Shown in pieces: positions 26,715 through 58,649 of a stretch of DNA of 58,975 nt. The DNA is from an uncultured Bacillota bacterium. Lineage in GTDB: Bacteria > Bacillota_I > Bacilli_A > RF39 > UBA660. The stretch is taken from the NCBI GenBank assembly GCA_946407495.1, contig CAMJOB010000004.1, forward strand, positions 1 to 58,975, read 5' to 3'. The notes beneath the pieces are model-generated. The model made no database searches. It was given only the letters and a program-made list of their open reading frames with translations, and was not told where the DNA came from. The position numbers and the translations under genes are program-made. The number at the start of each line of letters is the position of its first letter. The stretch's first letter is position 1.

Positions 26715-27612
26715 CGTCTACATTCAGTGTATACCCTTTTAGATTACATACTTCATTAATCTGTTTAATTCGAGTTTCCCATTGTTTAATATGAGCATCA
26801 ACCTCATCCTCAAGATAGAAAAGAAGTTTATTCTGTAAAAGGGTAAGCTGGTCAGTAGTAAGTTGAGAATAATTCTTGTTCTTTAACTGAATAGCCGCTC
26901 TAAACTCAGTATAATTAAGTTTAGCATTTTCATCATCAACTATAAGTCGGATATAGTTACGTATTCCAAGCCTTTCCTTAATAACTTCAAGTCTATTACG
27001 AACTTTACCATCTTCTGTCTTTTCAGTAAGATCTCTCATCTCTTGCTGTGTAAACCAAAGAGGAAGTTTAGTAATGAAATTAAGTGTAATATGTTTCTTA
27101 TTAAACACTCCTAAAGAATCAAGACAAGCATCGATTACTGTATTAATAGGTATATTAGCAAATTCATTAGGAATATTCTCAAGAATACCGATTGGAAGTT
27201 CTTTGAGATTCTCTACATTATAACTTGCTTTAAGTTCTAGTTCATGTTCATGAAGGAACTTACGAATTTCCTCTTGATAACGAAATCTTGGGAATTTAGA
27301 TCTATCGTTAGAAGGATGATATGTGTTTTCAAGGTAACGCATAAACAACTCAGCATTACATTTCATTCTTTGGTCTTTAATAATCTTAAGAAGAACATAA
27401 CGTCCAGGATTTTCCTTATCTCTACTATAGAGCATTGAAGCACAATGATTGAACGCTTTTTGAAGCTGTTCTTGTGTCATGTCCATAAGTCTAATTTCAT
27501 CCTGTACTTTACATCCATTAACGTCTTTCTTTGGACCCTTCCATACGTACATATTTACATTGTTGTTCTTAGCATCGAGTGCTTGTGTAAGTGCATCTCC
27601 GAGTATATTCAT
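26707..27612 (-). CDS. Hypothetical phage protein
   Basis: 301-aa ORF. Confidence 0.75.
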   Translation of the reverse strand: MNILGDALTQALDAKNNNVNMYVWKGPKKDVNGCKVQDEIRLMDMTQEQLQKAFNHCASMLYSRDKENPGRYVLLKIIKDQRMKCNAELFMRYLENTYHPSNDRSKFPRFRYQEEIRKFLHEHELELKASYNVENLKELPIGILENIPNEFANIPINTVIDACLDSLGVFNKKHITLNFITKLPLWFTQQEMRDLTEKTEDGKVRNRLEVIKERLGIRNYIRLIVDDENAKLNYTEFRAAIQLKNKNYSQLTTDQLTLLQNKLLFYLEDEVDAHIKQWETRIKQINEVCNLKGYTLNVDGE

Positions 27613-40207: not shown

Positions 40208-41075
40208 CAAAAAATTAACATTTATTAACAATAAAAATTATAAGTATCCACATAAATTTCTTATATTTACATATATTAAATAAAATAAAAAATTATGGAA
40301 ATTTTAAAAGATTATTGTAAAAATCGAAAATTAATCACATTAATTTGTGATTGTTGTGGTAAAGAATTTCAAAAACCACTTTCCGAATATAACAGAAATG
40401 TTAAATTAGGAAGAAAAAATTATTGTTCTAGAATTTGTTCTGGAAAATCTAATAAAAATTTATCATTATCAAATGAAAAATATGATATTTCACAACATTC
40501 TGGAAATAGAAGAGATGAATTTAGTCCTTTTAGATATACAATGAGATGTATAAAACGTAGATCTAAAGAAATAAATATTGATTTAGAATATTTAAAATTA
40601 ATATGGGAACAACAAAATGGAATATGTCCTTATACTAATCTTAAATTAACATTACCAGAAGATAATAATATAAATAATTTAAATATAATTTATCGAGCAT
40701 CTTTAGATAGAATTGATTCATCTAAAGGATATATAAAAGGTAATGTTCAATTTGTATCAACTCCTATTAATTTAATGAAACAACAAATGTCTGATTTAGA
40801 AACTAAAAAATTTCTAAAACAAATTTCTTCCTATACTTCTACTTTCATAGAAGATTAGACTATATCATCATCTCTTAATGAGATGTCGGACGCTCAAGTT
40901 GGTAATTAAGAACACTATAGTTCTCCAATAGTCGTTGCACTTTTATAGAGTGTACTCTATACTTAGCTCAGGATTGGCATGAAATAAAGCTTATCTTGAG
41001 CTTTATTTTTTAGCGTTCCCTGAATTCATCCGATGTTTTTAACTATAAATCACTTTATAGCTGGTCCAACTATTA
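40208..41075 (-). mobile_element. Group I intron in the tmRNA T-loop
   Basis: P1 GGUU/GACC with U.G; terminal G at 40208; R GCAACGACUA; S GAUAUAGUCU. Confidence 0.9.
40295..40858 (+). CDS. Putative His-Me finger homing endonuclease, antisense within the tmRNA intron
   Basis: N-terminal CDCCGKEF..YCS..C zinc finger; QNGICPYT..SLDRIDSSKGY..GNVQ..N.MK; the only convincing plus-strand gene. Confidence 0.85.
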   Translation: MEILKDYCKNRKLITLICDCCGKEFQKPLSEYNRNVKLGRKNYCSRICSGKSNKNLSLSNEKYDISQHSGNRRDEFSPFRYTMRCIKRRSKEINIDLEYLKLIWEQQNGICPYTNLKLTLPEDNNINNLNIIYRASLDRIDSSKGYIKGNVQFVSTPINLMKQQMSDLETKKFLKQISSYTSTFIED

Positions 41076-41410
41076 AACCCTCGTCTTACTAAAATATCAT
41101 CGAAATTTGTACACGCTTTTCAATTTTTAAAAGTTTTCTTCTTTAGGCTGACTGAATGTCAGCTCCACCAATTAGTTTTGTGAAAACTAATAAAACTTTG
41201 CTCATTTAATTACTGCCGATGCCAGCGATGAATACTATTTCTGTTCCTCGGTAAGTATTCTGTGTTTCCCGGGTATCATACTTAATTTAATTAAGCAGCG
41301 ATACGGAAGATTGTTACATCATTTCCATTTAAATTGTTTGTTGTCTTTCCAACTGTCTTTGCGTGATTTCTTTGCTTCTCTTAGCAATCAAAACCAAATA
41401 CCCCCAAATT

Positions 41411-43847: not shown

Positions 43848-43852
43848 ATTTG

Positions 43853-43929
43853 TGGAGGCACTGGGAGTTGAACCACAGGCCTAGGGTTTTTCAGACCCTC
43901 GCGCAAACAACCACCTACGCTATACCTCC
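43853..43929 (-). tRNA. tRNA-Phe(GAA)
   Basis: Cloverleaf; loop CUGAAAA. Confidence 0.88.
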
Positions 43930-43934
43930 AAATA

Positions 43935-44011
43935 CAAAACGCTTTAATTAGTTCATTGAAATTTAGGAAATTTTTTCAGAGTTAATTACATTTATTTGCT
44001 GTAAGCGTTTT
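43935..44011 (-). ncRNA. YACAGCAAA element 1
   Basis: AAAACGCU-UACAGCAAA...AGCGUUUU-G. Confidence 0.8.
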
Positions 44012-44041
44012 TAATTTAACTATGGTAAATTTAAAAATAAG

Positions 44042-44130
44042 AGGAGGATGTGGGATTCAAACCCACGAGCCATCTTACGACGACTTCCAGATTAGTAGTC
44101 TGGTGCTTTAAATCACTCAGCCAACCCTCC
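44042..44130 (-). tRNA. tRNA-Ser(ACU)
   Basis: Class II cloverleaf; loop CUACUAA. Confidence 0.85.
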
Positions 44131-44134
44131 ATTA

Positions 44135-44200
44135 CAGAATACTTTTATAAAGCATCTTCCCCTTAAAAATGTATTTTACAAAATTTGCTGTAAGTATTCT
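44135..44200 (-). ncRNA. YACAGCAAA element 2
   Basis: AGAAUACU-UACAGCAAA...AGUAUUCU-G. Confidence 0.8.
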
Positions 44201-44234
44201 TTTAAAAAATTATAGACGGGATAATATCCCAATG

Positions 44235-44309
44235 TGTGTCGCAACGGATTCGAACCGATATCTCAGTGATTCACAGTCACCGCCTTTAGCCAATTAAGTT
44301 AACGACACC
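44235..44309 (-). tRNA. tRNA-His(GUG)
   Basis: Encoded G-1; loop CUGUGAA. Confidence 0.88.
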
Positions 44310-44312
44310 ATG

Positions 44313-44519
44313 TTAATCAAATATTGGATTAGATGATATTTCTTTAGAATGTCTGCATCCTGGGCAACTATCTCCATTATTATAAGTACAATAGCCAGGA
44401 TATACATCTGATTTTTCACAACCGCAATTACAAACAGAATGATGTACTTGTGAACCGATCATCAAATCTTCAGATTCCGATATTATTAATTGTATTTCGG
44501 GTTTAATGTATTTAGTCAT
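44313..44519 (-). CDS. Cys-rich peptide with YxKP leader
   Basis: MTKYIKPEIQLIISESEDLMIGS followed by a six-Cys core. Confidence 0.7.
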   Translation of the reverse strand: MTKYIKPEIQLIISESEDLMIGSQVHHSVCNCGCEKSDVYPGYCTYNNGDSCPGCRHSKEISSNPIFD

Positions 44520-44686
44520 ATAAATAGTTATTTAATAAAACAATTTCTTGTTTAAGAGAATCATTTTGTTGTTGAAGTGTTTCAATATGTTGCTCAATAT
44601 TATTATAAAAAATATTCATTATAATTAAAACACAAGCTGTAGCAATTATAATCATTACTAATAATCCATTAAAATTACTTTTCATA

Positions 44687-44854
44687 TTAATAACTTCTTA
44701 ATAATTTGTAATTAATTTTAGAATGGTCACATTTAGAGTTATACATCATTATTAATGTATCTTCTCTTTTTTGATATTCACTTGTTATACGACTAATATA
44801 TCCAATTAATCCTAATATAGTGAAAATTAATATTGCAATAATTAAATTTTTCAT
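44687..44854 (-). CDS. Small TM protein
   Basis: Probable start MKNLII. Confidence 0.55.
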   Translation of the reverse strand: MKNLIIAILIFTILGLIGYISRITSEYQKREDTLIMMYNSKCDHSKINYKLLRSY

Positions 44855-44855
44855 T

Positions 44856-45131
44856 TTACTTGTTATTTTTATATTCATCAATAAAAATATTAGCTTGGTT
44901 TCTTAATAAAACTGAAGCCATTTTAAGTCGATCATTTGTAACAAGATAAGAACTAAAATCAGCATCAAGAATATAAGGAACATATTCTTTAACGAAATAG
45001 TCCTTCCATTTCCACCATAAAAACTTATGAGTTTCCTCATAAACATTAACAGTAACAGTTAAATCACAACATTCTCCTGGAATACAACACTCTTTAACTG
45101 TTAAAGAAAAAGTTTTAATAATTTTTTCCAT
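44856..45131 (-). CDS. Hypothetical protein
   Basis: ORF track. Confidence 0.6.
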   Translation of the reverse strand: MEKIIKTFSLTVKECCIPGECCDLTVTVNVYEETHKFLWWKWKDYFVKEYVPYILDADFSSYLVTNDRLKMASVLLRNQANIFIDEYKNNK

Positions 45132-45152
45132 ATTTGCTTATTTTTTAATTAG

Positions 45153-45244
45153 AGGAAGGTGTGGGACTCCAACCCACACACCGCTGTAACACGATTACTG
45201 AGAATTTTCAAGATTCTTGCCTTAGCAATTAGGCTTAACCTTCC
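45153..45244 (-). tRNA. tRNA-Ser(UGA)
   Basis: Class II cloverleaf; loop CUUGAAA. Confidence 0.88.
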
Positions 45245-45250
45245 GATTAG

Positions 45251-45324
45251 TTGGATAACTTGGATTTGAACCAAGGACTTCCACATTATCAGTGTGGTAC
45301 TCTAACCAACTGAGTTATTATCCA
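45251..45324 (-). tRNA. tRNA-Ile(GAU)
   Basis: Cloverleaf; loop CUGAUAA. Confidence 0.92.
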
Positions 45325-45329
45325 ATATA

Positions 45330-45398
45330 CAGAATACATTTGTTATAATTTCAGTCCAATTTAAATTATTTTAAAAATTAATTTGCTGTATGTATTCT
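45330..45398 (-). ncRNA. YACAGCAAA element 3
   Basis: AGAAUACA-UACAGCAAA...UGUAUUCU-G. Confidence 0.8.
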
Positions 45399-45425
45399 TT
45401 AATTATGCCTATATTGTAAAAATAG

Positions 45426-45497
45426 AGGCTCTACTCAGAATCGAACTGAGATTTTCGGGTTACAAAGCCGAGGTAATAACCATTATACTAAAGAGCC
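45426..45497 (-). tRNA. tRNA-Thr(UGU)
   Basis: Cloverleaf; loop UUUGUAA. Confidence 0.88.
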
Positions 45498-45648
45498 AAG
45501 TAAATCCTGTTTTAAACCTCATTATTAACAGGATTTCTTACACTTTCGTGCGTTTACTTAATATAGGATAAGTAAATCCTATCTCCGTTTCTTGTTGTAA
45601 CCGAGATTTAAAAGTCAATGTGGTTTGGCTCCACATCAGCCGAGGTTG

Positions 45649-45721
45649 TAGAGGCGTTGGGATTCGAACCCAAATGAACAGATCGAAAATCTGTAATCCT
45701 AAACCCTTAGATGACGTCTCC
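45649..45721 (-). tRNA. tRNA-Glu(UUC)
   Basis: Cloverleaf; loop UUUUCGA. Confidence 0.88.
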
Positions 45722-45733
45722 AAATTTGTAAAT

Positions 45734-45764
45734 CAAATTTACACAAAAGATTTTAATTTACAAA
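45734..45764 (-). promoter_or_regulatory. Bacteroidota sigma-A type promoter
   Basis: TTTG-N19-TAAATTTG just upstream of tRNA-Glu. Confidence 0.7.
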
Positions 45765-46067
45765 ATATTTTAACAAATTTTAAATATAGTAAATAGTGAA
45801 CATTCTACTTCTCTTTTTTGGCGGGCGGTGCGCTTATCACTAATTATCACACACTCCACATACATAGAATATCGTTTTACTATATTATATTAAACAAAGT
45901 CCGTTCTCTTCTTTCCCTAAGTCTAAACGATGGCTAATGTCACCAAAACTCCATTAATAGGGTTACCTGGTTGCTGTTTATTCTATCAACTTATTTGAAC
46001 TATTATTCGCATCGAATGCCTTGAATTACTCCAAGTAACGGCTGCGCCTGTAATACTTTGTTTATTG

Positions 46068-46798
46068 TACCCTTACCAAGAATCGAACTTGGATCAATAG
46101 TTTAGCCTGCCACTCTATGTTACCATAGCCAAATAACTCTTGGATTCTAACCAAGAAACCGCCATTACCTCAAGCATCACAACCATGCTTTCGACTTTGC
46201 ATTACTGCTTTCAGATAGTTTACATATAGGTTGCTCTACTATCATCAGTTATTTGTTGTGGTCTGGAACATATTATAACCATATTGAAATTCTCGCGCAA
46301 GTAGTGTCTGTTTCAGTGATAGCAGTTCATGTAAGCCTGCTTATTTGACCGTCCCACAATTTCAACTTAGGCTGTACCTCTATGTTCTCTACACGTTTAT
46401 GAGAATAAACAATATTTACGAATTGCCACCAATAAATATTGTACAATGGAAATCAAGGAGTCTACAAGGAGGCAATTGCTTCTGCTTGTACTTTCTTTTC
46501 ATTCTATTCTCAACTTAGCTCGGTATAATCCTATTCCATTATTGTTTAGGAAAATCTTCTAACAGCACTCCTATGGAATTACCCAATGGTCTGTCGCCTT
46601 TATCATTTCAAAAGAGGGTTGAACATTTAGTCTTTCTCTTTTATAGATAGTAAGACTCAAGGTTACTGGTTTAAGATTCATACTTCTAACCTTTTTTCTG
46701 AAGGACTTCCACCGAATTAGGATACTTCTACTATGGGATTTCTCGCCATAGCACTCCTTATTTGAAGACTACTGCTCTATCCATTGAGCTATAAGGGC
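46068..46798 (-). tRNA. tRNA-Arg(UCU); exons 46765-46798 and 46068-46105
   Basis: Joined exons give a cloverleaf with loop CUU|CUAA. Confidence 0.9.
46106..46764 (-). mobile_element. Group I intron in the tRNA-Arg anticodon (659 nt, no ORF)
   Basis: Follows U34 and ends in G; P1 with AAGG; R GUAGAGAACAU pairs with S AUAUGUUCC; P9 CUAUG-GUAA-CAUAG. Confidence 0.85.
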
Positions 46799-46804
46799 AT
46801 CATT

Positions 46805-46867
46805 CAGAATACGTTTTTTAATTTAAACTACTTTTAATTATATTAATAAATTTGCTGTATGTATTCT
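46805..46867 (-). ncRNA. YACAGCAAA element 4
   Basis: AGAAUACA-UACAGCAAA...CGUAUUCU-G. Confidence 0.8.
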
Positions 46868-46894
46868 TTCAGTTATCCCATGTAAAACTATTTG

Positions 46895-47125
46895 TTATCC
46901 TTTTAACCTATTGAGATGATTTTTAGTTCGCTCAATTTCCTCAGAAAGACGCTTACACTCTTCAGCATAAGTTCTTCCAGGATGGAAATGAGGTTTACCG
47001 TTTCTTGTACTTGTCCAAGACTCCTTATCCTTTTTAGCAGCCTTAAACGTTTCGTAAGAGGCTTCAAGCCTAGTCAATGCGCTTCTAAGGCGAGCGCTAA
47101 GTCCACCTTTCTTACTTTTTCCCAT
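46895..47125 (-). CDS. Small basic protein
   Basis: ORF track. Confidence 0.65.
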   Translation of the reverse strand: MGKSKKGGLSARLRSALTRLEASYETFKAAKKDKESWTSTRNGKPHFHPGRTYAEECKRLSEEIERTKNHLNRLKG

Positions 47126-47142
47126 GATTTAATTGTTTAAAA

Positions 47143-47358
47143 TTATTTTTTCCAGTTATACCAACTTATAATAGATAATACTGTATAAAATACAAACATT
47201 ACTATTTGGCTCCAATTTGGAATAGTCATAAAATTAACTATAATCCAAAGTATATTTGCAATTATCCATAAAGGAAATACCCAAATAATTTTTCTAATTA
47301 AAAGTATATTTCCTAAAATAGAAAATGACATTGCAATAAATGATAAAGTATCAATCAT
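47143..47358 (-). CDS. Three-TM PnuC-like (nicotinamide riboside transporter half) protein
   Basis: GNILLIRKIIWVFPLWIIANILW...WYNWKK resembles the PnuC repeat. Confidence 0.6.
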   Translation of the reverse strand: MIDTLSFIAMSFSILGNILLIRKIIWVFPLWIIANILWIIVNFMTIPNWSQIVMFVFYTVLSIISWYNWKK

Positions 47359-47527
47359 CGTCAACAACACTAATAAAAGTATATGCAATTCCTATAAATA
47401 AAATTGCATACAATATGAGTTCTAAAAGTTTAGTCATAATTAATTAAAAATAACAGAAAGCCAATTAAGTTGACTTTTTGTTAAATTATCGTACCATTCT
47501 TCAAAGTCTTTATCAGGGTTTACAAAT

Positions 47528-48607
47528 TTAAACCATATCTTCAGTTTGTTTTTTAAAGTCAGATCGTTTAACAAATAAATAGAATTTTCCATATCCCATA
47601 TTAATTCGAGCTTCAGGAGAAAGTGTTTCAAGTGCTTTATTACATAATGTTAATTGTTCTCTCCAATCATTAACGTAATCAGATTCTGGATATTTTTCAA
47701 GATGTTCATTAAGATCTTGTATTGTTTCCTTAGTCTTTATAACTTCTGGATTTGTTGTAGTTATCCAATAATCTTGACCATTTAATTTCCTGGAAATAAA
47801 TGAATTTACAGGAATCCAATTTTCTGCTAAATGAGCACGTTTCTTATGTTCATAATCACTTCTCTCTAAAGATGATTTATATTTTTCATATGGAACTGTT
47901 ATATACTTGTGTTTACTATAATCATAATGAGATTCTTTATAATTAAAATATTCTCTATAATAATAAGAACTACAAGTATATAATGGTAATTTTAAAACTT
48001 TCTGATTAACAACAACCCAAAATGTTCCAAGTAAAATTGGATTTGTTTTGGTATGATGTAAATAAGTATCATTTATATAATTACCCCAATTATCCTTTTT
48101 ATGTGCATAACGAGGATCACTTATACATATTCCTAAATTAGGTAATTTAACTCTTTCATTAAATCGTTTTTGTTTTCTATCTAATGTAGGATATGCACGA
48201 TTACGATATGAAAGTTTTTTACATTTATGGATAATATTGTTTTTATCAATATAAAACTTTTGTTTCCAACAATAAGCCTCTTTTATTTCATCGTAAAATA
48301 AATAATCCTCTAATCTACACCATTCAAGATTATATTTTTTAAGATTTTTTAATCGGTTATCAAATTCTTGTTTAAAATCATAATATGATTTTCCAACAAA
48401 CTTATTTAATAAACCAATTATATATTTAGAATGAAGAGCTGCACCACCACGATCATGCCATTCTCTTTTATAATGTTGTCTCATACCAAGATGTGTGCCT
48501 TCAAATGAATTCATTTGATGACGTGGAAATTGTGATCCACCTCTTTTACCATGTCTTCCTCGAAAACTATAATTTCGATACTTTGCAATCCATTTATGTT
48601 CACTCAT
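47528..48607 (-). CDS. Hypothetical protein
   Basis: 359-aa ORF. Confidence 0.7.
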   Translation of the reverse strand: MSEHKWIAKYRNYSFRGRHGKRGGSQFPRHQMNSFEGTHLGMRQHYKREWHDRGGAALHSKYIIGLLNKFVGKSYYDFKQEFDNRLKNLKKYNLEWCRLEDYLFYDEIKEAYCWKQKFYIDKNNIIHKCKKLSYRNRAYPTLDRKQKRFNERVKLPNLGICISDPRYAHKKDNWGNYINDTYLHHTKTNPILLGTFWVVVNQKVLKLPLYTCSSYYYREYFNYKESHYDYSKHKYITVPYEKYKSSLERSDYEHKKRAHLAENWIPVNSFISRKLNGQDYWITTTNPEVIKTKETIQDLNEHLEKYPESDYVNDWREQLTLCNKALETLSPEARINMGYGKFYLFVKRSDFKKQTEDMV

Positions 48608-48630
48608 AATTTATTGAATTTAAATTGAGA

Positions 48631-48729
48631 ATAAACTGTGTGCTATTTCAAATTCTATACACCAAACCTACAAACAAAAATGTGTGGTAGGTTTCCAAAC
48701 AGGATTCTAACCTGGATTCCTTAGTTTAT
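48631..48729 (-). ncRNA. Circularly permuted tRNA-like RNA
   Basis: AUAAACU/AGUUUAU closing stem; T-like CAGG-UUAGAAU-CCUG; AAACCUAC/GUAGGUUU; D-like GUGU..GCAC. Confidence 0.55.
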
Positions 48730-48731
48730 TG

Positions 48732-48804
48732 TCTAGATAGTAAGACTCGAACTTACAACCCCATCATCCCAAATGACGAATTCTACCTATTGAACTATAC
48801 CTAG
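48732..48804 (-). tRNA. tRNA-Pro(UGG), second copy
   Basis: Cloverleaf; loop UUUGGGA. Confidence 0.9.
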
Positions 48805-48933
48805 ATTTCGATAAGGACTTACTCGGACATTTGCCTTATCATAAATTGACATTCAGCTATCGCGTCGCTACACAGTCCTTTTTTGGCGACACTAACACAC
48901 TCTTACTTAGCTAGTAAGTGCTATACCCAATTC

Positions 48934-49302
48934 TTATCCTATTTCTTGAAATTCAAATTTAGCACCACATGAACATACCATTACACCCGCAACACCTAAT
49001 GGAGTTGGATAAAAATGGTAACTAAATCCTTTTTCTTTACAAGTTTTATAATGTTCAGCTACCCATTTGTCAATAGCTTCTTTTTCTTCTTTACTTATAG
49101 GAAAACCTCTATAATAATCTTCCTTAAGTCGTTTATTTTCTTCTCTTAATTTAGAAACATAACCTATTTCATAAGTTTTATTTCTATGTTCTTCATTTTC
49201 TTTTTCAACACGTTCTTTATGTAACTTAAGCCATTCATACTTATTTTTAAGCATTTCAAGTAATTCATCAAACGTGTATTGATTAAAAAATATATTATCC
49301 AT
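48934..49302 (-). CDS. Hypothetical protein
   Basis: ORF track; FYPTPLG..CSCG. Confidence 0.7.
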   Translation of the reverse strand: MDNIFFNQYTFDELLEMLKNKYEWLKLHKERVEKENEEHRNKTYEIGYVSKLREENKRLKEDYYRGFPISKEEKEAIDKWVAEHYKTCKEKGFSYHFYPTPLGVAGVMVCSCGAKFEFQEIG

Positions 49303-49306
49303 TTAA

Positions 49307-49732
49307 TTAAAGTTTTCCAAGATCCATATATTCTAATGTATCATTATATTCAATATTATCTTTAAGATAATAAGCAGTCATATACACTGTTGATTGTTGA
49401 TGATAAAAATGTAGTTGAATTATATTATCGTACTTGAATGGTAAAGTATACCTTAATCGATCAGATATAGTAAGTTGTGGTAACTTATCTGCATTTGAAT
49501 CAATTACATTTGTATCAAGTATATTTGTACCAAGTAATTTAGGTATTTGAATATCATTATATTCTACAACTTGCATCTTTGGTTTTTCCCACGGATATTT
49601 TGCTTCATATATTGCAGCAAAACTTGTTGTAGCAAATCGTATCTGTGTAGCATCTTTATGCTTAATTAATATAAGACTTTCTAAATTACTATCAACAGTT
49701 ACTTTGAACTCATCTTCTTCAAAAATTTTCAT
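49307..49732 (-). CDS. Hypothetical protein
   Basis: ORF track. Confidence 0.65.
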   Translation of the reverse strand: MKIFEEDEFKVTVDSNLESLILIKHKDATQIRFATTSFAAIYEAKYPWEKPKMQVVEYNDIQIPKLLGTNILDTNVIDSNADKLPQLTISDRLRYTLPFKYDNIIQLHFYHQQSTVYMTAYYLKDNIEYNDTLEYMDLGKL

Positions 49733-49754
49733 AATTATTTATTTTATATTAAAG

Positions 49755-49828
49755 TGGACCCCCTCAGGGTTGAACTGAGACTCTCACAGCTTATGAGGCT
49801 GGTGTTTTAACCTTTAAACTAGAAGTCC
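49755..49828 (-). tRNA. tRNA with CAU anticodon (Met or Ile2)
   Basis: Cloverleaf; loop CUCAUAA. Confidence 0.85.
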
Positions 49829-49951
49829 TTATTCCCATCTATACGTACTTCCCCAGCTGAGGGAACGATGGGAACTTTCTATTTGTGCGTCCGTCGGCTT
49901 TACCATCTTTACGGTAGGTCTGCGCAGTGCCGCTGCCACAAATATACAATT

Positions 49952-50161
49952 TTATTCTGATTTTGTTGTATGGGTTTTAAAGGCTGAGCCTATAATACTA
50001 AGTAACACACTACAACCAAATGCTTGCCAATATGTTAGAATTGGAGCAGTCTTCCAAAACAATGGAGCTAACCAATTCCATAATGTTTGAAGACACCATG
50101 CTTCAAAAAAACTTAACGCAATAATTACTACGATAAGTAAAAAACATCCTAATTTACTCAT
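49952..50161 (-). CDS. Small membrane protein
   Basis: LWNWL.P..LTYWQAFG motif. Confidence 0.7.
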   Translation of the reverse strand: MSKLGCFLLIVVIIALSFFEAWCLQTLWNWLAPLFWKTAPILTYWQAFGCSVLLSIIGSAFKTHTTKSE

Positions 50162-50413
50162 TTTTATTAATTTAAGTTTGTATAAACAAAAAATGCTTAG
50201 CTTCTAATGGCTAAACATTCTTCGATTTCCTTCTTTCGACTGAAAGATGAACTCAATTTTCAAAAAATTTGGAATAAAGCCAACAAATAGGAGCAAATAT
50301 AATTGATACTATTCCTGTGAATATTACTCCAATAAAAGCCGCTATTATTATAAATAAACTTATAATAGGCGATAAAATAAAAAGTATAGCTTTCATAATT
50401 TTTTATTTTTTAA

Positions 50414-50536
50414 CAGAATACTATAAAAAATTCGCGTTCTACCACTGAACTACACTACCTGTTACAGTAGAGAAGGGAATCGAACCCATGTTACGGCATT
50501 ACAAGTGCTAATTTAATAATTTGCTGTGAGTATTCT
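50414..50536 (-). ncRNA. YACAGCAAA element 5 with permuted tRNA domain
   Basis: AGAAUACU-CACAGCAAA...anticodon, T, closed acceptor and D arms...AGUAUUCU-G. Confidence 0.85.
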
Positions 50537-50556
50537 TTTTACTTATATTTTAATTT

Positions 50557-50985
50557 TTATTTAATTCCAATAATGGTATCGAAATCAAAATCATCCATAA
50601 TGTGAATATTTTTAGTTTGTCCATTTAAAGGAGGTGACAATCTAATAGTCATACTTTTTTGACTTCCAATTTCTTTAATAGGAATTAAAATAACTTTATC
50701 TAAAGGAACTATATAACAAGCAATATAATCAACATCATTTTCATATGTTGTATAATGTTTATTAGTTGTATGATTAGTACTACTTGCACATGGACATTCT
50801 ACTGAATTATATTTAGTAATTTGTCCACAATATTTAATCTGAATTTTATTTAATTTACCATTAAACTCTGCTATTAAATCATATCTTGCAGAATCTCCAA
50901 AAGGTAAACAACACTGTATACCTCTTTTAGTAAATTCAGCTAATACAATAGCTTCACCAATATTTCCTTTTTCTTTCGTTATCAT
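50557..50985 (-). CDS. Free-standing PD-(D/E)XK homing endonuclease (I-Ssp6803I-like)
   Basis: TKEKGNIGE..PFGD..RYDLI..KIQIK..Y..DVDY. Confidence 0.85.
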   Translation of the reverse strand: MITKEKGNIGEAIVLAEFTKRGIQCCLPFGDSARYDLIAEFNGKLNKIQIKYCGQITKYNSVECPCASSTNHTTNKHYTTYENDVDYIACYIVPLDKVILIPIKEIGSQKSMTIRLSPPLNGQTKNIHIMDDFDFDTIIGIK

Positions 50986-50989
50986 TTTG

Positions 50990-51062
50990 TACTTCCACTG
51001 AGAGTTGAACTCAGATAACCCAAATTAAAAGTTTGGTGCTCTACCAATTAAGCTATGGAAGC
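50990..51062 (-). tRNA. tRNA-Lys(UUU)
   Basis: Cloverleaf; loop CUUUUAA. Confidence 0.92.
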
Positions 51063-51141
51063 TAAATAAATTAAATTAAACAAATTATAATCAAATTAGC
51101 GTTACCCAGACACACCACGTGGAGGTTTTGATTATGTGTCC

Positions 51142-51212
51142 TTGCGGTAGTGGGAATTGAACCCCTCTTTAAGGTTATGAGCCTTATGTGCGACCATCAC
51201 ACTGCTACCGCG
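51142..51212 (-). tRNA. tRNA-Met(CAU), initiator-like 5' end, short T stem
   Basis: CGCGG 5' end with C.A mismatch; loop CUCAUAA. Confidence 0.75.
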
Positions 51213-51216
51213 ATAT

Positions 51217-51387
51217 TTAGTCTAATATTTGTATTTTACTTTTATGTAATGCTACAACAATCGGTCCTACCATTACATTATAAATGTCACCATTTATTTC
51301 TTCTACTCTACCAACCATTCCTTTAAGATAAGGAATATTGCAATTGAGTACTTTCACTCTTTGTCTTGTATCTTTTTTATAAGCCAT
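51217..51387 (-). CDS. Small KOW/SH3-like protein
   Basis: Start moved out of tRNA-Trp; VKVL..YLKGMVGRVEEI. Confidence 0.6.
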   Translation of the reverse strand: MAYKKDTRQRVKVLNCNIPYLKGMVGRVEEINGDIYNVMVGPIVVALHKSKIQILD

Positions 51388-51401
51388 AATTAATTTATTA
51401 G

Positions 51402-51473
51402 CAGGTCTTAGTGGAATCAAACCACTCTCTTTGGTTTTGGAGACCAATGTTCTAGTCGATGAACTAAAGACCA
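51402..51473 (-). tRNA. tRNA-Trp(CCA)
   Basis: Cloverleaf; loop CUCCAAA; G73. Confidence 0.88.
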
Positions 51474-51479
51474 ATGTTA

Positions 51480-51582
51480 CAGAAAGCAAAATATCAGTTT
51501 AATTTAACCGCTATTCTTCTAAATCTTTAATGAGTTCTATTTTTAATTACAATGAAAAAAGTAAATTTGCTGTATGCTTTCT
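51480..51582 (-). ncRNA. YACAGCAAA element 6
   Basis: AGAAAGCA-UACAGCAAA...UGCUUUCU-G. Confidence 0.8.
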
Positions 51583-51620
51583 TTCCAATTATGAATAATT
51601 TTTTTAAAATTATCTCAAAG

Positions 51621-51691
51621 AGGGCAGTACCTGAGTCAAACAGGTCTAATTGGTTTTGCAGACCAATATATAATCGCTCTAACAACTACCC
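51621..51691 (-). tRNA. tRNA-Cys(GCA)
   Basis: Loop CUGCAAA; U73. Confidence 0.85.
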
Positions 51692-51694
51692 AAG

Positions 51695-51877
51695 TTATGA
51701 TAAAAAGTCTCTAATTTCCATTAAAGAAAGAATCTCTTTCTTTCTATTATTAAACAATCTGTTACCTTTACACCACGGACAATCTCCATGATTTCTACAA
51801 CGATATGAAACGTTTTTTGCACCTCTATATTGTTTTCGGTGCTCTTTTCCTGATTGAATAGCTTTATCAAAACTCAT
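51695..51877 (-). CDS. Small basic Cys/His protein
   Basis: MSFDKAI.SGKEHRK..CRNHGDCPWC. Confidence 0.7.
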   Translation of the reverse strand: MSFDKAIQSGKEHRKQYRGAKNVSYRCRNHGDCPWCKGNRLFNNRKKEILSLMEIRDFLS

Positions 51878-51896
51878 AGTAATTAATTTTAATAAG

Positions 51897-51980
51897 TGCA
51901 GATAAAGGGACTCGAACCCATACGTATATTTCAACACTAGATCCTAAGTCTAGCGCGACTGCCAATTTCGCCATATCTGC
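51897..51980 (-). tRNA. tRNA-Leu(UAG)
   Basis: Class II; loop CUUAGGA. Confidence 0.9.
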
Positions 51981-51992
51981 AAATAATAATTG

Positions 51993-52065
51993 AGCAGCGT
52001 AAGAGATTCAAACTCTCGCCTTTGGAGTGGAAGTCCAATATGCTAATCACTAACACCAACGCTGC
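51993..52065 (-). tRNA. tRNA-Gly(UCC)
   Basis: Loop CUUCCAC; U73. Confidence 0.88.
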
Positions 52066-52070
52066 AAATT

Positions 52071-52153
52071 CGGAATACTGATGGATTTGAACCATTTAAA
52101 ACAATATAATCAGTATTATTTATTAACCATAAAATATTTGCTGTAAGTATTCC
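52071..52153 (-). ncRNA. YACAGCAAA element 7 with cloverleaf-like insert
   Basis: GGAAUACU-UACAGCAAA..D-like, CUGAUUA loop, T arm..AGUAUUCC-G. Confidence 0.85.
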
Positions 52154-52187
52154 TTTAAATTTTTTAACATGAAAACTAAAATCACAG

Positions 52188-52258
52188 CGGTCTATAAGGG
52201 AGTCGAACCCTTGCTTCAAGAGAGACAGTCTAGCGTCCTACCGTTAAACGAATAGACC
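52188..52258 (-). tRNA. tRNA-Asp(GUC)
   Basis: Loop CUGUCUC; G73. Confidence 0.88.
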
Positions 52259-52262
52259 AATT

Positions 52263-52342
52263 CAGAATAGTATATTATAATGCTTTTTACATGTCTTTTT
52301 TCTTAAGTTTAAATAATTATAAAATTTTGCTGTGACTATTCT
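52263..52342 (-). ncRNA. YACAGCAAA element 8
   Basis: AGAAUAGU-CACAGCAAA...ACUAUUCU-G. Confidence 0.8.
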
Positions 52343-52376
52343 TTACCTTTAGGTTAAATTCATATGAAACATAATA

Positions 52377-53132
52377 TTAAAATTTAAATGTTCTACACGA
52401 GAACAATTTATTTTTATAATCAACTTCTACAAAATGTTTATTATATTTCTCATTAATAAACTTTGCAGCTTTCTTAAAAATAAATTGATCAGAATAATAC
52501 TTTGGATTATTGTCAGTTATTATAATTTTAAAACAAACATCTATTAATTCTTTAATGTCTTCCTTTTTACCAAAGTAAACACCAGAATTTATAAAATGTT
52601 TATCTTTTATATCACTCAAACTTTCAATGTTTGATGTTTCAAAGTATTCTTTAACATAACCTGGAGATTTTTCAGTAGGATAATACATCTTGAAGAAGAA
52701 AGGATAATCATATTCATCTTTATTAAATAAGACATTACAATTATAACTATTAAATCTTTCAAGAATTTCGTTAAAAGAAATATCTACATTTAATACTGTA
52801 TCTCCAGAATCTATAAATAATATATAATCATTTAATAAATCATACTTTTCATCAAGAATTTTTTTAAAATATAATATTTTTTTAATATTTAAAGCATAAT
52901 TAACATTTTCATATATATTTATAGAATTTATGTTATTCTCATTTATATATTTAAGTAATGTTTTAGAAAATGGATAATTATCTGTTGATCCATAAACTAA
53001 AGTAACATTATCATTAAATTCTGTCAATTTATCTGAATTTATTTTAGCTTTAACAACAGTTCCGTAAAAATATTTTACAAGTTGTTGTGCTTTTAATTTC
53101 ATTCCCGCAAAATGGTGAACTAATGTATTCAT
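52377..53132 (-). CDS. Glycosyltransferase, GT-A (PLOD GT-domain-like)
   Basis: LFIDSGD, FINSGVYFG, SDQ motifs. Confidence 0.7.
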   Translation of the reverse strand: MNTLVHHFAGMKLKAQQLVKYFYGTVVKAKINSDKLTEFNDNVTLVYGSTDNYPFSKTLLKYINENNINSINIYENVNYALNIKKILYFKKILDEKYDLLNDYILFIDSGDTVLNVDISFNEILERFNSYNCNVLFNKDEYDYPFFFKMYYPTEKSPGYVKEYFETSNIESLSDIKDKHFINSGVYFGKKEDIKELIDVCFKIIITDNNPKYYSDQFIFKKAAKFINEKYNKHFVEVDYKNKLFSCRTFKF

Positions 53133-53148
53133 AATAAAGATTTATTAG

Positions 53149-53231
53149 CGCACGGAGAGGGATTCGAACCCACGAAACATTTCTGTGGCAGGTTAACAGC
53201 CTGCTGCCGTTGACCACTTGGCTATCCGTAC
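53149..53231 (-). tRNA. tRNA-Asn(GUU) with long variable arm
   Basis: Loop CUGUUAA; G73; class II body. Confidence 0.85.
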
Positions 53232-53248
53232 TAATTTTAAAGGTAAAT

Positions 53249-53279
53249 CAAATATAAAATTTAATTTTTTAATTCCAAA
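53249..53279 (-). promoter_or_regulatory. Bacteroidota sigma-A type promoter
   Basis: TTTG-N19-TATATTTG upstream of tRNA-Asn. Confidence 0.7.
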
Positions 53280-53299
53280 ATAATTTTTGAAATTTTTTG

Positions 53300-53373
53300 T
53301 AGAGCTTGTTAGAATCGAACTAACGATCTTCTGGATGTAAGCCAGATGTTTTAGACCACTAAACTAAAGCTCT
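53300..53373 (-). tRNA. tRNA-Val(UAC)
   Basis: Cloverleaf; loop CUUACAU. Confidence 0.92.
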
Positions 53374-53422
53374 AAAATTAGTGTGTGCACCTTAAAAATA
53401 CTTTAAAATTATACTGAAAGAA

Positions 53423-53515
53423 CGAACGAGAAGCATAAGATTATTTCTCATAAGATACACACACGTTAAACTTAACTTTGATTAATGCTAAAAATTAATT
53501 TGCTGTGTCTCGTTC
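53423..53515 (-). ncRNA. YACAGCAAA element 9 (directly downstream of the TROVE-like gene)
   Basis: GAACGAGA-CACAGCAAA...UCUCGUUC-G. Confidence 0.8.
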
Positions 53516-53550
53516 TTAAAACCATGTTCTAAGTAAAGGGAATTAACCCT

Positions 53551-55257
53551 TTACTTAATTTTCTTTATCAATTCTTGATTAAGAGCAGCATCGAATAATT
53601 CTTTTGCTGTCTTAGGAATTGATGGTGTATATTTTGTTCCTGTTAGAAATGCAATTCCAGCAGGATCAAATCCGCTCATGTAATAGAAGTTAGGTCTATC
53701 TGCAATACCCTCAAACTTAGGATGTATATTCTTACCGTAGTAATATCCATTTGGAATATCCCAAAGAACAAGTTTAAAGTTATCTACAAACTTATCACTA
53801 AATCCTCCTTTACGAAGTATTTCAAGAAATTCTTCGAAGTCAGATTTGTCAGAAGGAGCTTCATCAAACTCTCCATCAGAAACACAAATTACTCCTGTTG
53901 GAAATTCTGATTCATTGTATCCTTTTCTTTTAAGGTCTACAAATAAATTAGCAATTGAAAGGAAATTTGTATTATCACATTCTCCTGATAGAGGTGTATT
54001 TCTCCACTTCTCAAATGGAGTATCTCCATTCCAAGTTCTAATTACAGTTTCTTCTGCGAACTCCAAGAATGTGTTAGCAAAATTACCTTTAAGTAATTCG
54101 CTGAAGTAAAGTGCCATACTTATAGCAACTTCTATACTTCTAACATCTGTTCCAATAGCTGGAGCTTTCATTGAGCCAGAAGTATCTACACATACAATGA
54201 AAGATGTTTCTGTATTCATGTCCTTCTTAGCTGTCTCAATCAAACTTTTAAACTGCTTATTTAAAGTAGATATTTGATAAGACTTCAAACGAGTTGGTTC
54301 TTGATAATATATACCAAACTTCAAGTCATTATAAAGACCTTTGAAAAGCTCATATGGATAACCTGTGAACTTAGCAACAGGTTGCTTTTCAAGCCACTGA
54401 TAATAAGCATTTACCAAATCGTGGTTCTCTAAGAATTTAGACTTGACAAGTTTACTAAGAGCACGTCCAGCAATAAGACTGAAATTAATCTCATTATATT
54501 TCTGTTGAGAAATCTTTTGTTCCCACGTATGTGCTTTACCAGAAGCCTTAAAGCTACGATAATCTGCATACGCTTTCTTCTTGTCTATATCTCCTCTTTT
54601 ATCCCATACTGCAATCAGTTTACCAATTATACTATTGGCTTGCTTTCGTGGAGTAGTACATTTTGAAGATGGATTGATTTTTGGCAAGTATTTCTTAATA
54701 AGATCTACTTGGTTTTCATTCTGGAAATTGTCTACAATGTACTGAATGACTGTTGTAAACAATCTACGAGTAAAACGATGTGCACCACGATAGTACAAAT
54801 CTGTACGTAACAATTCAAACAAATCGTTCCATGAACCAGCCGCTACAAAAATATCAAGATTTCTCTTAAACATTTTTGGATAATTCAGAGCAAAGAAATA
54901 CAATCTTCCAATGTATTCATGCTTTAAACCTTGTCCACGATGTACTCCAAGAGTTTTATCTTGGAAGAATGGAGCACGAGTAATTAGTCTTAAATAGACT
55001 GTTAGCCTCAGAGCTATAACAGGATCGATATTACACAATTTTTGTGTTGTGTAAAAAATATCATCCATTTCTCTTAGCTCTCTGTAATTAGCTAATTGAG
55101 CGAAGTCATCAAGGAAAATGTCACCTGTAGTTTTGTACTTGACACTTCCATTACCAGAAGTAGTTTGCACTTCTTTTTTAAACATTTCTTTTTCAAAAAT
55201 GTTCATGTCTTTTACAGACTTCTGTTTCTTTCCGTAAAGATTTTCTAACTTTTTCAT
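53551..55257 (-). CDS. TROVE/Ro60-like helical repeat + vWA protein (DUF2828-like)
   Basis: MIDAS VDTSGSM, TNF, VSDGEFD, MSGFDP; N-terminal helical region with LITR..RGQG, GSWNDL; start moved out of tRNA-Leu. Confidence 0.8.
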   Translation of the reverse strand: MKKLENLYGKKQKSVKDMNIFEKEMFKKEVQTTSGNGSVKYKTTGDIFLDDFAQLANYRELREMDDIFYTTQKLCNIDPVIALRLTVYLRLITRAPFFQDKTLGVHRGQGLKHEYIGRLYFFALNYPKMFKRNLDIFVAAGSWNDLFELLRTDLYYRGAHRFTRRLFTTVIQYIVDNFQNENQVDLIKKYLPKINPSSKCTTPRKQANSIIGKLIAVWDKRGDIDKKKAYADYRSFKASGKAHTWEQKISQQKYNEINFSLIAGRALSKLVKSKFLENHDLVNAYYQWLEKQPVAKFTGYPYELFKGLYNDLKFGIYYQEPTRLKSYQISTLNKQFKSLIETAKKDMNTETSFIVCVDTSGSMKAPAIGTDVRSIEVAISMALYFSELLKGNFANTFLEFAEETVIRTWNGDTPFEKWRNTPLSGECDNTNFLSIANLFVDLKRKGYNESEFPTGVICVSDGEFDEAPSDKSDFEEFLEILRKGGFSDKFVDNFKLVLWDIPNGYYYGKNIHPKFEGIADRPNFYYMSGFDPAGIAFLTGTKYTPSIPKTAKELFDAALNQELIKKIK

Positions 55258-55281
55258 AATTGTAAATAAATTTACTTTATG

Positions 55282-55368
55282 TACTGAAAGCGAGACTCGA
55301 ACTCGCACAACCATTACTGGTCAAGGGATTTTAAGTCCCTCGTGTCTACCTAATTCCACCATTTCAGC
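55282..55368 (-). tRNA. tRNA-Leu(UAA)
   Basis: Class II; loop CUUAAAA. Confidence 0.92.
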
Positions 55369-58292: not shown

Positions 58293-58374
58293 TTTACCCA
58301 TCGTTGGACTTTCACCAATCCAGATTGCTTAAGCGCTAATAACAATAATGGGGATTTATTACTAGTAAAAATCG

Positions 58375-58444
58375 CAATCCCTATCGGACTCGAACCGATA
58401 ACCGCTGTTAAAGAACAGTGCTCTCACCATTGAGCTAAGGGATT
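58375..58444 (-). ncRNA. tRNA-like RNA with 4-nt anticodon loop
   Basis: Perfect acceptor, D and T arms; CUGUU-CUUU-AACAG. Confidence 0.8.
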
Positions 58445-58532: not shown

Positions 58533-58649
58533 TAGATATAACAGGATTCGAACCTGTGACCCCGCGCCGTATCATATAAATGATGTTAGTATTATGAATG
58601 TACACTCAAAACCCGAGTCGCTACTCTAAACCAACTGAGTTATATATCT
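58533..58649 (-). ncRNA. tRNA-like RNA with multibranch insert replacing the anticodon arm
   Basis: AGAUAUA/UAUAUCU acceptor, canonical D and T arms, three hairpins closed by GCG/CGC. Confidence 0.8.

Follow-up and report, generated by a model that had tools for sequence, protein, structure and literature searches.

Described Ro60 Systems and the Locus

Ro60 proteins recognize their RNAs through one of two described motifs, a bulged helix containing GGUCCGA or the sequence GNCGAAN0-1G near the 5′ end, and Ro-like proteins with adjacent YrlA-like RNAs have been published for mycobacteriophages (PMC4201824). Ro60-like proteins are found in hundreds of cultured phages, and at least one of them counters a bacterial defense system (PMC11482910). 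For the RNA partners of such phage proteins, there were earlier only a few YrlA-like predictions. Here, we analyzed a 58,975-nt stretch of DNA from an uncultured Bacillota bacterium (contig CAMJOB010000004.1), referred to in the following as the window, which carries nine short minus-strand elements close to a gene for a Ro60-like protein of the DUF2828/DUF7788 type. Each element consists of a constant part, the handle, formed by a terminal helix and the single-stranded sequence ACAGCAA, and a variable insert, the cargo. The reading that we prefer, with a probability of roughly 65%, is that the nine elements are genes for modular Y-RNA-like partners of the phage Ro60-like protein and that these RNAs are released from tRNA-array transcripts.

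This arrangement resembles the Y RNA and YrlA systems in that a Ro60-like gene lies on the same strand as the RNAs and no more than a few kb away, a stem with a conserved motif on its 5′ side joins the two ends of each RNA, a genome encodes several different RNAs, and one of these often includes a tRNA-like domain made up of T arm, D arm and closed acceptor hairpin (PMC4201824). It differs in that the phage RNAs reach about ten copies per phage and are interleaved with tRNA genes, many of the phage cargos are short hairpins or anticodon-arm mimics, and the phage protein, unlike Ro60, matches DUF2828/DUF7788 and not the Pfam TROVE family. Thermus phage phiLo also has a Ro60-type ring/vWA protein and two adjacent small RNAs, Yrl1 and Yrl2, for which binding was shown in vitro; there, however, the RNAs were chosen by the canonical CGAA motif, the protein is a recognized Ro60 homologue, and the accessible text describes no tRNA-array context (PMC12135203). 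Phage Bas63, which is Felix O1-like, encodes the same kind of protein, gp130, with a Ro60-like fold, directly upstream of a tRNA array, and the related phage E9 has four elements at that place. The Bas63 authors only guessed that some of the annotated tRNAs were Y RNAs, and no RNA partner, handle or family is defined in the accessible part of their paper (PMC11482910).

Published work thus covers Ro-like proteins, a small number of YrlA-like RNAs from phages and guesses of “Y RNAs among the tRNAs”. The phage system is probably a Ro/Y-type ribonucleoprotein (RNP) with a different handle, multi-copy, modular and embedded in tRNA arrays, with a DUF2828-type rather than a TROVE-type protein. An earlier note on this DNA, made from the letters alone, had proposed a candidate new phage RNP system; with the mycobacteriophage precedent, its novelty is only partial. 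In literature searches, neither the handle nor the family, nor its likeness to the Class I RNAs discussed below, was found described, although the supplements of PMC4201824 (with its 22-phage list) and PMC7919456 may show otherwise, and a full-text search for the letters of the motif returned primers only.

Nine Elements with a Common Grammar

The sequence YACAGCAAA occurs nine times in the window, always on the minus strand. Dinucleotide shuffles gave an expectation of 1.06 and a maximum of 4 occurrences, and none of 100 shuffles reached nine. In each copy, the 8 nt immediately 5′ of the motif pair with 8 nt located 37–97 nt downstream, which are followed by a G (Table 1). All eight positions pair in eight of the copies, and seven of eight in copy 4. 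The terminal helix was present in the minimum-energy folds of all nine copies, with modest thermodynamic z-scores between −0.39 and −3.04. A covariance model made from relatives recovered every copy when run with filters off (E 8.5e-13 to 0.1) and matched elsewhere in the window at only three further sites, all of them weak (E 0.07–0.85). Since the motif count, the pairing grammar, the covariance model and the folds agree, the observation in the earlier note is confirmed in every detail: it had listed nine minus-strand elements with an 8-bp stem, YACAGCAAA, a variable insert and a trailing G, with stems that differ in sequence yet stay paired apart from one mismatch in copy 4, and with one copy starting 35 nt past the stop of the vWA gene. 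The interleaving of the copies with tRNA genes and the permuted tRNA mimic in the insert of copy 5 go beyond what had been noticed then.

The window is one entire contig (C4) of a 52-contig, 1.14-Mb genome bin. Eighteen other matches to the motif were found across the bin, none of which had the grammar of the elements; one site, at 51244–51310 of contig C1, reaches 8/8 pairing only by way of G-U pairs and without the trailing G. All nine elements are on the same strand as the Ro-like gene. Copies 6–9 lie at most 4 kb from it, copy 5 at most about 3.1 kb, and copies 1–4 between 6.7 and 9.6 kb.

Covariation of the Handle in Related Phages

For comparison, 79 loci around homologues of the protein, mostly 100–200 kb in length, were retrieved from phage contigs by an alignment-based search; the same search with a single protein sequence found nothing. 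In these loci and the window taken together, ACAGCAA was enriched 6-fold on the strand of the gene (652 sites versus 110 on the other strand, with 49 and 33 for the reversed controls), and one or more copies with a perfectly paired closing stem were present in 74 of the 80 sources. When 52 different copies from many phages were aligned, they showed the order A-A-G, helix, N-ACAGCAA, variable region, return strand, C-U-G. ACAGCAA and the trailing G were invariant in all 52 copies, and at the DNA level the A, A and G at one end and the C and U at the other were each at least 90% conserved.

The 8-bp helix was 99.5% paired in this alignment, with 139 double-sided changes, and all eight pairs covaried. 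The covariation score was 0.902, compared to 0.207 for shuffled alignments (reached in none of 500) and at most 0.133 when the partner strand was slid. The outermost pair, which had not been used in selecting the sequences, was A-U in 47 copies, G-C in five and unpaired in none. The covariation shows that the elements form an RNA structure, as the earlier note had read from the nine stems. A covariance model (R1) gave 268 matches (E ≤ 0.01) in 82 loci, all 268 of them on the gene strand, a result that is partly circular because the sequences in the model came from the loci that were searched.

As inverted repeats around variable inserts in intergenic positions, the elements could also act as DNA, as recombination sites, miniature transposons, promoters or terminators. 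We consider this highly improbable: the strand bias is total (268/268), and the arms covary freely next to a 7-mer that is invariant and asymmetric, unlike the arms of transposase or recombinase sites. No transposase was associated with the elements, a scan for promoters and terminators gave results at chance level (75 promoter sites versus 72.4 expected), and an 8-bp stem with a loop of 40–100 nt is no intrinsic terminator.

Linkage of the RNA to the Protein

The RNA and the protein are genetically linked, in a strand-specific manner, across distant phages. When eight records of 70–183 kb were searched whole, all 28 matches were on the gene strand and no more than about 13 kb from the gene. 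Seven of the eight records had matches; the eighth, that of the GC-rich mycobacteriophage Moostard, was missed by the covariance model, which is AT-rich and misses GC-rich copies such as those in Moostard. A motif-first scan of the collection with ATAAG-N7-ACAGCAAAT returned 80 loci, mostly chance matches. Fifteen records were positive with the model, and 13 of these contained the protein, compared to 3 of 60 RNA-negative records (Fisher p = 4e-10). The two RNA-positive records lacking the protein are fragments, 4% and 25% complete, and the protein matches in the three RNA-negative records were weak and partial. In addition, seven reference phages were chosen without prior knowledge. T4, T5, K, SPO1, phiKZ and rV5 had neither RNA nor protein, whereas KVP40 had both, so that RNA and protein agreed in 7/7; in KVP40, they are on the same strand, 7.5 kb apart, and the copies lie inside a tRNA array. 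Co-occurrence with the TROVE-like gene across genomes had been set in advance as a test of the system, and it was found in the comparison of records and in the reference phages, along with the common strand of the 268 matches. The main reading of the earlier note has withstood this test.

Among cultured phages, the handle was found in those of E. coli, Listeria, Mycobacterium, Vibrio and a cyanobacterium. The cyanophage Lbo-JY46 has five tandem copies with UGAUAAG linkers, the first of them 9 nt past the stop of the gene, and no tRNA nearby. The E. coli phage E9 has its four copies in a tRNA array just past a gene annotated “RNA-binding protein”; their motif occurs as the variants UGCAGCAAA and UUCAGCAAG, and the cargo of the fourth is a permuted tRNA mimic. 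The Listeria phages P100 and CKA15 have a tandem array of three copies immediately upstream of the gene, preceded in P100 by a promoter-like site (TTGACA/TATCAT), and genes for RtcB and an RNA ligase follow a few kb downstream of the Ro-like gene. Moostard has three copies directly past the stop of the gene. A single helix + ACAGCAA handle therewith picks candidate partners in phages of Proteobacteria, Firmicutes, Actinobacteria, Cyanobacteria and rumen bacteria, and it supplies mutants with which the mechanism of the protein can be tested. It also accounts for unannotated gaps and spurious small open reading frames (ORFs) in phage tRNA arrays.

The fourth handle RNA of E9 (positions 11916–12228 of locus L089) is overlapped by two small coding sequences annotated “hypothetical protein”, which are probably mis-annotations. 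The most transcribed non-coding region of CKA15 (26,236–26,727; 4513–5004 of locus L210) was considered as a handle RNA and rejected, being a different RNA of about 490 nt. It sits behind a TTGACA/TATAGT site, between tRNA-Pro and CKA15_058, and has no name in Rfam.

tRNA-Like Cargo

The cargo copies parts of tRNAs. A tRNA-type hairpin loop of 7 nt was present in 64 of 280 unique inserts, compared to 3 of 280 shuffled ones. Some of the loops are like those of anticodon arms (CUUUUAA in 18 inserts, CUUGUAA in four) and others like T loops (UUCGAAU in 14, UUCGAGU in eight and UUCAAAU in four). CUUUUAA is a copy of the anticodon loop of tRNA-Lys(UUU), and tRNA-Lys is a target of anticodon nucleases. 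Longer inserts of 91–130 nt had a T-loop motif in 41 of 55 cases; of these, 16 had the T arm before the D arm and only one had the normal order. In contrast, all 119 short inserts were free of tRNA-like motifs (T loop, D arm). In the window, a tRNA-like domain with T arm, D arm and closed acceptor was found in one of the nine copies, copy 5, the insert of which mimics a circularly permuted tRNA: an anticodon-like hairpin comes first, followed by the T arm, a closed acceptor hairpin and the D arm. The design is modular, with a single handle and many cargos that are often copies of tRNA parts, and the interchangeable cargo proposed in the earlier note is seen in inserts with anticodon-loop-like, T-loop-like or whole permuted tRNA-like modules.

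At gathering thresholds, Rfam named nothing at the elements. In a search of the window with YrlA (RF02553), only copy 5 matched and the other eight copies did not; the gathering score of 69 bits was reached by no copy, the matches ranging from 24.1 to 37.9 bits. The highest of these, 37.9 bits, belonged to the middle RNA of Moostard, a whole permuted tRNA mimic that sits within the handle. A permuted tRNA-like or YrlA-like RNA within the handle was also found once in a related large phage, L063 (30.1 bits with YrlA), and once in E9. At least these RNAs of Moostard, L063, E9 and the window therefore carry the present handle and not GNCGAAN0-1G (PMC4201824). The canonical Y RNA motif and this handle are not the same, in line with the earlier statement that the classical Y RNA helix is missing.

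The Ro60-Like Protein

Homologues of the window protein are typically about 568 aa long, compared to 587 aa for the ORF in the window. In Pfam, the window protein matched DUF7788 above the cut-off (E 4.4e-9) and DUF2828 weakly, at 21 bits and below the cut-off of 29 bits; it also matched phrog_850, “RNA-binding protein”, over residues 46–564 (E 7.7e-33). A total of 976 homologues were found at E ≤ 0.001. No homologue longer than 1050 aa was found, which is weak evidence. Among 30 aligned family members, 29 matched DUF2828, 29 matched DUF7788, and 18 matched the Ro60-type vWA domain PF25045 (vWA_Ro60), with a best E of 7.7e-7. The residues of the metal ion-dependent adhesion site (MIDAS), D377, S379, S381, T449 and D480, were invariant across the family.

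Searched with the family profile, the PDB gave Ro60 chains as the best sequence matches and as the only ones below E 0.1. One run returned only two matches, both Ro60; in a second search, Ro60 made up the top two of six (E 0.006 and 0.0094), with a generic vWA at 0.25. A query of the ESM Atlas with the homologue P0100 led only to the DUF2828/DUF7788 virus clusters to which P0100 itself belongs. A six-frame search of the genome bin with TROVE gave no match, whereas control genomes were matched. A scan of 301 genomes of the bin's phylum, in which genomes are small (0.7–2 Mb), was silent at 1e-20, and since the controls were likewise silent, it is uninformative. Judging from these profile matches, the Ro60-type part of the protein is probably the vWA domain only; of the TROVE/Ro60-like gene named in the earlier note, the Ro60-type vWA domain stands, and the TROVE part has no Pfam match.

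By tblastn, the family was present in 494 cultured-phage records, the carriers including Felix O1-like phages of E. coli and Salmonella, P100-like phages of Listeria, phages of Staphylococcus, Enterococcus, Bacillus and Vibrio, and mycobacteriophages. The mycobacteriophage homologues are annotated “Ro-like RNA binding protein”, and the “Ro-like” protein of Moostard is DUF7788 + DUF2828 by Pfam. For the CKA15 homologue, CKA15_055, the top HHpred match is D. radiodurans Rsr, and the protein is also present in virions (PMC12282133). Bas63 gp130, with its Ro60-like fold and its place directly upstream of tRNA genes, counters the Ppl defense system (PMC11482910).

Resemblance to Dictyostelium Class I RNAs

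The only Rfam family to match the handle was RF01414, the Dictyostelium Class I RNA. Seven elements scored between 20.1 and 39.3 bits, all below the gathering score of 41.5: two in the window (Table 1), one in E9 (20.1), and four in Lbo-JY46 and L063 (39.3, 30.7, 26.2 and 25.8), with a best E of 4.7e-4. The earlier note had recognized no named family for the elements, which holds above the gathering thresholds of Rfam but not below them, where the resemblance of RF01414 to the handle appears.

In Class I RNAs, a covarying stem of 6 bp joins the ends, the middle is variable, and there are many genes per genome (Kjellin et al., PMC7919456). An unstructured 11-nt motif lies beside the 5′ strand, with T, C, C, A and A nearly invariant at positions 3, 6, 9, 10 and 11, and the ends are conserved as AAG and CUGU; the RNAs are stable free RNAs of 42–65 nt and, in the accessible text, are reported as confined to Dictyostelia (PMC7919456). 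The Rfam consensus of RF01414 reads stem, CCUUACAGCAA, variable region, stem, UG. In the phage RNAs, the core ACAGCAA is identical, single-stranded and immediately 3′ of the 5′ strand, and the terminal stem likewise has compensatory changes, its 8 bp all covarying. They share with Class I RNAs the variable middle, at the DNA level the ends AAG and CUG(U), and the many different copies per genome (PMC7919456). When the 11-nt motif, with positions taken from PMC7919456 and the Rfam consensus, was compared with the phage copies, positions 5–11 (ACAGCAA) were invariant in 52/52, whereas positions 1–4 varied because they are inside the helix.

The differences are that the phage stem has 8 bp instead of 6, the phage inserts are in many cases longer and can amount to an entire tRNA mimic, and Class I genes, located in the nuclear genomes of dictyostelids, have a Dictyostelium upstream sequence element (DUSE) promoter some 60 nt ahead of them, whereas the phage RNAs are in bacterial-type tRNA arrays with bacterial or phage-type expression. 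Taken by sequence, the phage handle matches each described feature of Class I RNAs except length and promoter. DUF2828/DUF7788 proteins also occur in eukaryotes. It is possible, though doubtful, that the RNAs of phages and the Class I RNAs of dictyostelids belong to a single family, with the helix + ACAGCAA handle as its defining feature and DUF2828/DUF7788 as the conserved partner. If true, this would be a second, ancient Ro/Y-type RNP lineage common to phages and eukaryotes, and the orphan Class I RNAs would acquire a protein partner along with a function open to testing. Known since 2004, Class I RNAs are abundant and, to our knowledge, still without a mechanism; the near-identity of the handles makes this 20-year-old orphan class testable.

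A further difference concerns the binding protein. In the accessible text of PMC7919456 and of the preprint 10.1101/2020.04.05.026054, the sole proven direct binder of a Class I RNA is a protein with an RNA recognition motif (RRM); one of four proteins pulled down with a Class I RNA, DDB_G0281243, is given there without an assigned function (preprint 10.1101/2020.04.05.026054). The phage RNAs might be free decoys or regulators recognized by a different factor, for example a nuclease of the host, a defense sensor or another phage protein, with the Ro-like gene merely co-inherited in a tRNA/RNA-repair module. The handle is also unlike the known Ro60 motifs (PMC4201824), and the copying of the tRNA-Lys(UUU) anticodon loop in 18 inserts, with the CUUGUAA loop in four more, would fit such a decoy. 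We nevertheless judge this to be quite unlikely, as RNA and protein co-occur even though the proteins are only about 22% identical and the hosts belong to five bacterial phyla. The distance from RNA to gene is usually between a few hundred bases and a few kb, with both on the same strand, and the linkage is kept in Lbo-JY46, where there is no tRNA array at the spot, so that sharing of a module alone is insufficient.

tRNA Array Context and Proposed Mechanism

On its minus strand, the window contains 27 tRNA genes. In seven of nine cases, an element stops 4–6 nt short of a tRNA gene (Phe, Ser(act), Ile, tRNA(UCA), Trp, Gly and Asp). In the reading that we prefer, Y-RNA-like partners released from the array, the RNAs would be co-transcribed with the tRNA array and freed by the tRNA-processing machinery. 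The cut by RNase P at the next tRNA would trim the 3′ side, leaving C-U-G-U plus 2–4 nt; in copy 1, for example, the RNase P site of tRNA-Phe would fix the 3′ end. For the tandem arrays, in which the linkers are 5 nt long, a further endonuclease is implied. The released RNA would consist of a constant handle, that is, an 8-bp helix starting with A-G and ending with C-U that closes the 5′ and 3′ ends, an unpaired A before and an unpaired G after the helix, and single-stranded N-ACAGCAA immediately 3′ of the 5′ strand, together with a cargo that may range from a simple hairpin through an anticodon-arm or T-arm mimic to a complete circularly permuted tRNA mimic. Binding of the handle by the protein would resemble that of Ro60 to the 5′ strand of a Y RNA stem, and the cargo would recruit or tether tRNA-directed enzymes or soak them up as a decoy. 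Such an RNP might serve RNA repair, quality control or counter-defense during infection. We infer both that the elements are transcribed as discrete stable RNAs and that the RNP has such a downstream function. Counter-defense or RNA repair appears to be the most likely theme because of the anti-Ppl phenotype of Bas63 gp130 (PMC11482910), the presence of CKA15_055 in virions (PMC12282133), the nearby RtcB and RNA ligase genes in P100 and CKA15, and the Lys-type anticodon loops.

Because seven of nine copies end so close to a tRNA, the elements might instead act in cis, as leader modules of phage tRNA precursors that do not persist as free RNAs. The helix and ACAGCAA would then mark or protect polycistronic tRNA transcripts or guide their processing, and the Ro-like protein could be the reader. 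Elements and tRNAs are all on one strand, and in the related loci 131 of 324 elements with a non-overlapping downstream tRNA stop at most 10 nt before it, while 93 elements begin 11–30 nt past a tRNA. However, an element precedes only 88 of the 687 unique tRNAs in these arrays, so that the elements do not serve as leaders of tRNAs in general. Lbo-JY46, P100, CKA15 and Moostard have tandem copies that are neither separated nor followed by a tRNA, in P100 with the promoter-like site in front; copy 5 of the window precedes an ORF; and the look-alike Class I RNAs are stable and free (PMC7919456). On balance, a purely cis-acting role seems unlikely to us.

Several points weigh against the elements being genes for free RNA partners of the Ro60-like protein, the proximity of the seven copies to tRNAs being one of them. 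That the protein binds at ACAGCAA is something we infer, and the handle, a helix with N-ACAGCAA, is neither GNCGAAN0-1G nor the bulged GGUCCGA helix of Y RNA and YrlA (PMC4201824). TROVE (PF05731) matched none of the 30 aligned family members at E ≤ 1, and the published statements on HHpred matches and fold concern the relatives CKA15_055 and Bas63 gp130, not the window protein (PMC12282133, PMC11482910). The background of the crude pairing test is high, as 378 of the 652 ACAGCAA sites close perfectly, compared to 131–244 of 652 with the 5′ strand shifted; we therefore relied on the covariance model and on covariation. The model R1 was in turn built from the same loci that it searched, and its own seeds are among the 268 matches. 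Weak evidence for expression of the window elements comes from metatranscriptome contigs (four runs from three studies, sheep and bovine gut), in which the elements had a depth of 10–26 and the protein gene 26–75; these are assembled contigs, which are blind to ends, strand and level, and DNA carry-over is possible.

Other Features of the Contig

The positions of the elements, the adjacent tRNA genes and the protein gene are listed in Table 1.

Table 1. Elements, tRNA genes directly 3′ of them, and the Ro60-like protein gene in the window.
Feature	Position	Strand	Terminal helix (5′/3′)	Motif	Insert (nt)	Trailing base	3′ neighbor or location	Covariance model (bits)	Remarks
Copy 1	43935..44012	−	AAAACGCU/AGCGUUUU	UACAGCAAA	51	G	tRNA-Phe 5 nt past G	46.5	
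Copy 2	44135..44201	−	AGAAUACU/AGUAUUCU	UACAGCAAA	40	G	tRNA-Ser(act) 4 nt past G	67.1	RF01414 27.2 bits
Copy 3	45330..45399	−	AGAAUACA/UGUAUUCU	UACAGCAAA	43	G	tRNA-Ile 5 nt past G	50.4	
Copy 4	46805..46868	−	7/8 paired	UACAGCAAA	37	G	Intron-bearing tRNA(UCA) 6 nt past G	50.4	RF01414 25.3 bits
Copy 5	50414..50537	−	AGAAUACU/AGUAUUCU	CACAGCAAA	97		Small ORF, no tRNA	19	YrlA RF02553 24.1 bits, E 0.19
Copy 6	51480..51583	−	AGAAAGCA/UGCUUUCU	UACAGCAAA	77	G	tRNA-Trp 6 nt past G	37.3	
Copy 7	52071..52154	−	GGAAUACU/AGUAUUCC	UACAGCAAA	57	G	tRNA-Gly 5 nt past G	42.5	T-arm-like hairpin GGUUCAAAUCC in insert
Copy 8	52263..52343	−	AGAAUAGU/ACUAUUCU	CACAGCAAA	54	G	tRNA-Asp 4 nt past G	39.7	
Copy 9	53423..53516	−	GAACGAGA/UCUCGUUC	CACAGCAAA	67	G	tRNA-Val 49 nt downstream	26.1	35 nt past stop of Ro-like gene (53551)
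tRNA-Phe	43852..43929	−					Directly 3′ of copy 1		
tRNA-Ser(act)	44041..44130	−					Directly 3′ of copy 2		
tRNA-Ile	45250..45324	−					Directly 3′ of copy 3		
tRNA(UCA)	46067..46798	−					Directly 3′ of copy 4		637-nt intron in anticodon loop (position 37/38)
tRNA-Trp	51401..51473	−					Directly 3′ of copy 6		
tRNA-Gly	51992..52065	−					Directly 3′ of copy 7		
tRNA-Asp	52187..52258	−					Directly 3′ of copy 8		
Ro60-like protein gene	53551..55314	−							587-aa ORF from first ATG; N-terminal helical DUF2828 region, C-terminal DUF7788/Ro60-type vWA domain

From its gene content, the contig reads as a large rumen phage with its genes on one strand; these include genes for a DNA polymerase, a ligase, helicases, a primase, NrdD, a sigma-70 factor and NAPRTase. 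The region of the elements had no megablast match among cultured phages.

The tRNA(UCA) was called by ARAGORN only when introns were permitted. Its anticodon reads UGA, and its intron had no intron match in Rfam. The stretch 45380–46755 had a metatranscriptome depth of 376–2100, compared to 2–70 in its neighbors (contigs from four runs), with many variable joints, and could represent a structured intron, or some other RNA, that is stable and widespread. Another tRNA, with anticodon UUA, was found at 58374–58444 (−) by ARAGORN and by the Rfam tRNA model (57.4 bits) and is a possible TAA (ochre) suppressor. Together, the UUA and UCA tRNAs hint at an altered reading of stop codons by the phage or its host. 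A 117-nt match to the Rfam tRNA model at 58533–58649 (−; 42.8 bits), missed by ARAGORN, may be a tRNA carrying an insertion.

A group I intron was found at 40836–41085 (−) with 97.3 bits in Rfam, beside a plus-strand ORF (40295–40858) that may encode a homing endonuclease. At 51087–51142 (−), there was a weak match to a hepatitis delta virus (HDV)-like ribozyme (RF02682, 24.4 bits, cut-off 44), just 3′ of tRNA-Met (51143–51211), presumably where ribozymes trimming the 3′ trailers of tRNAs have been described in gut phages. In the related large phages L018, L030, L037, L063, L064, L072 and L087, transfer-messenger RNA (tmRNA), hatchet and hammerhead ribozymes, and group I introns were found near the tRNA arrays and the Ro-like gene.

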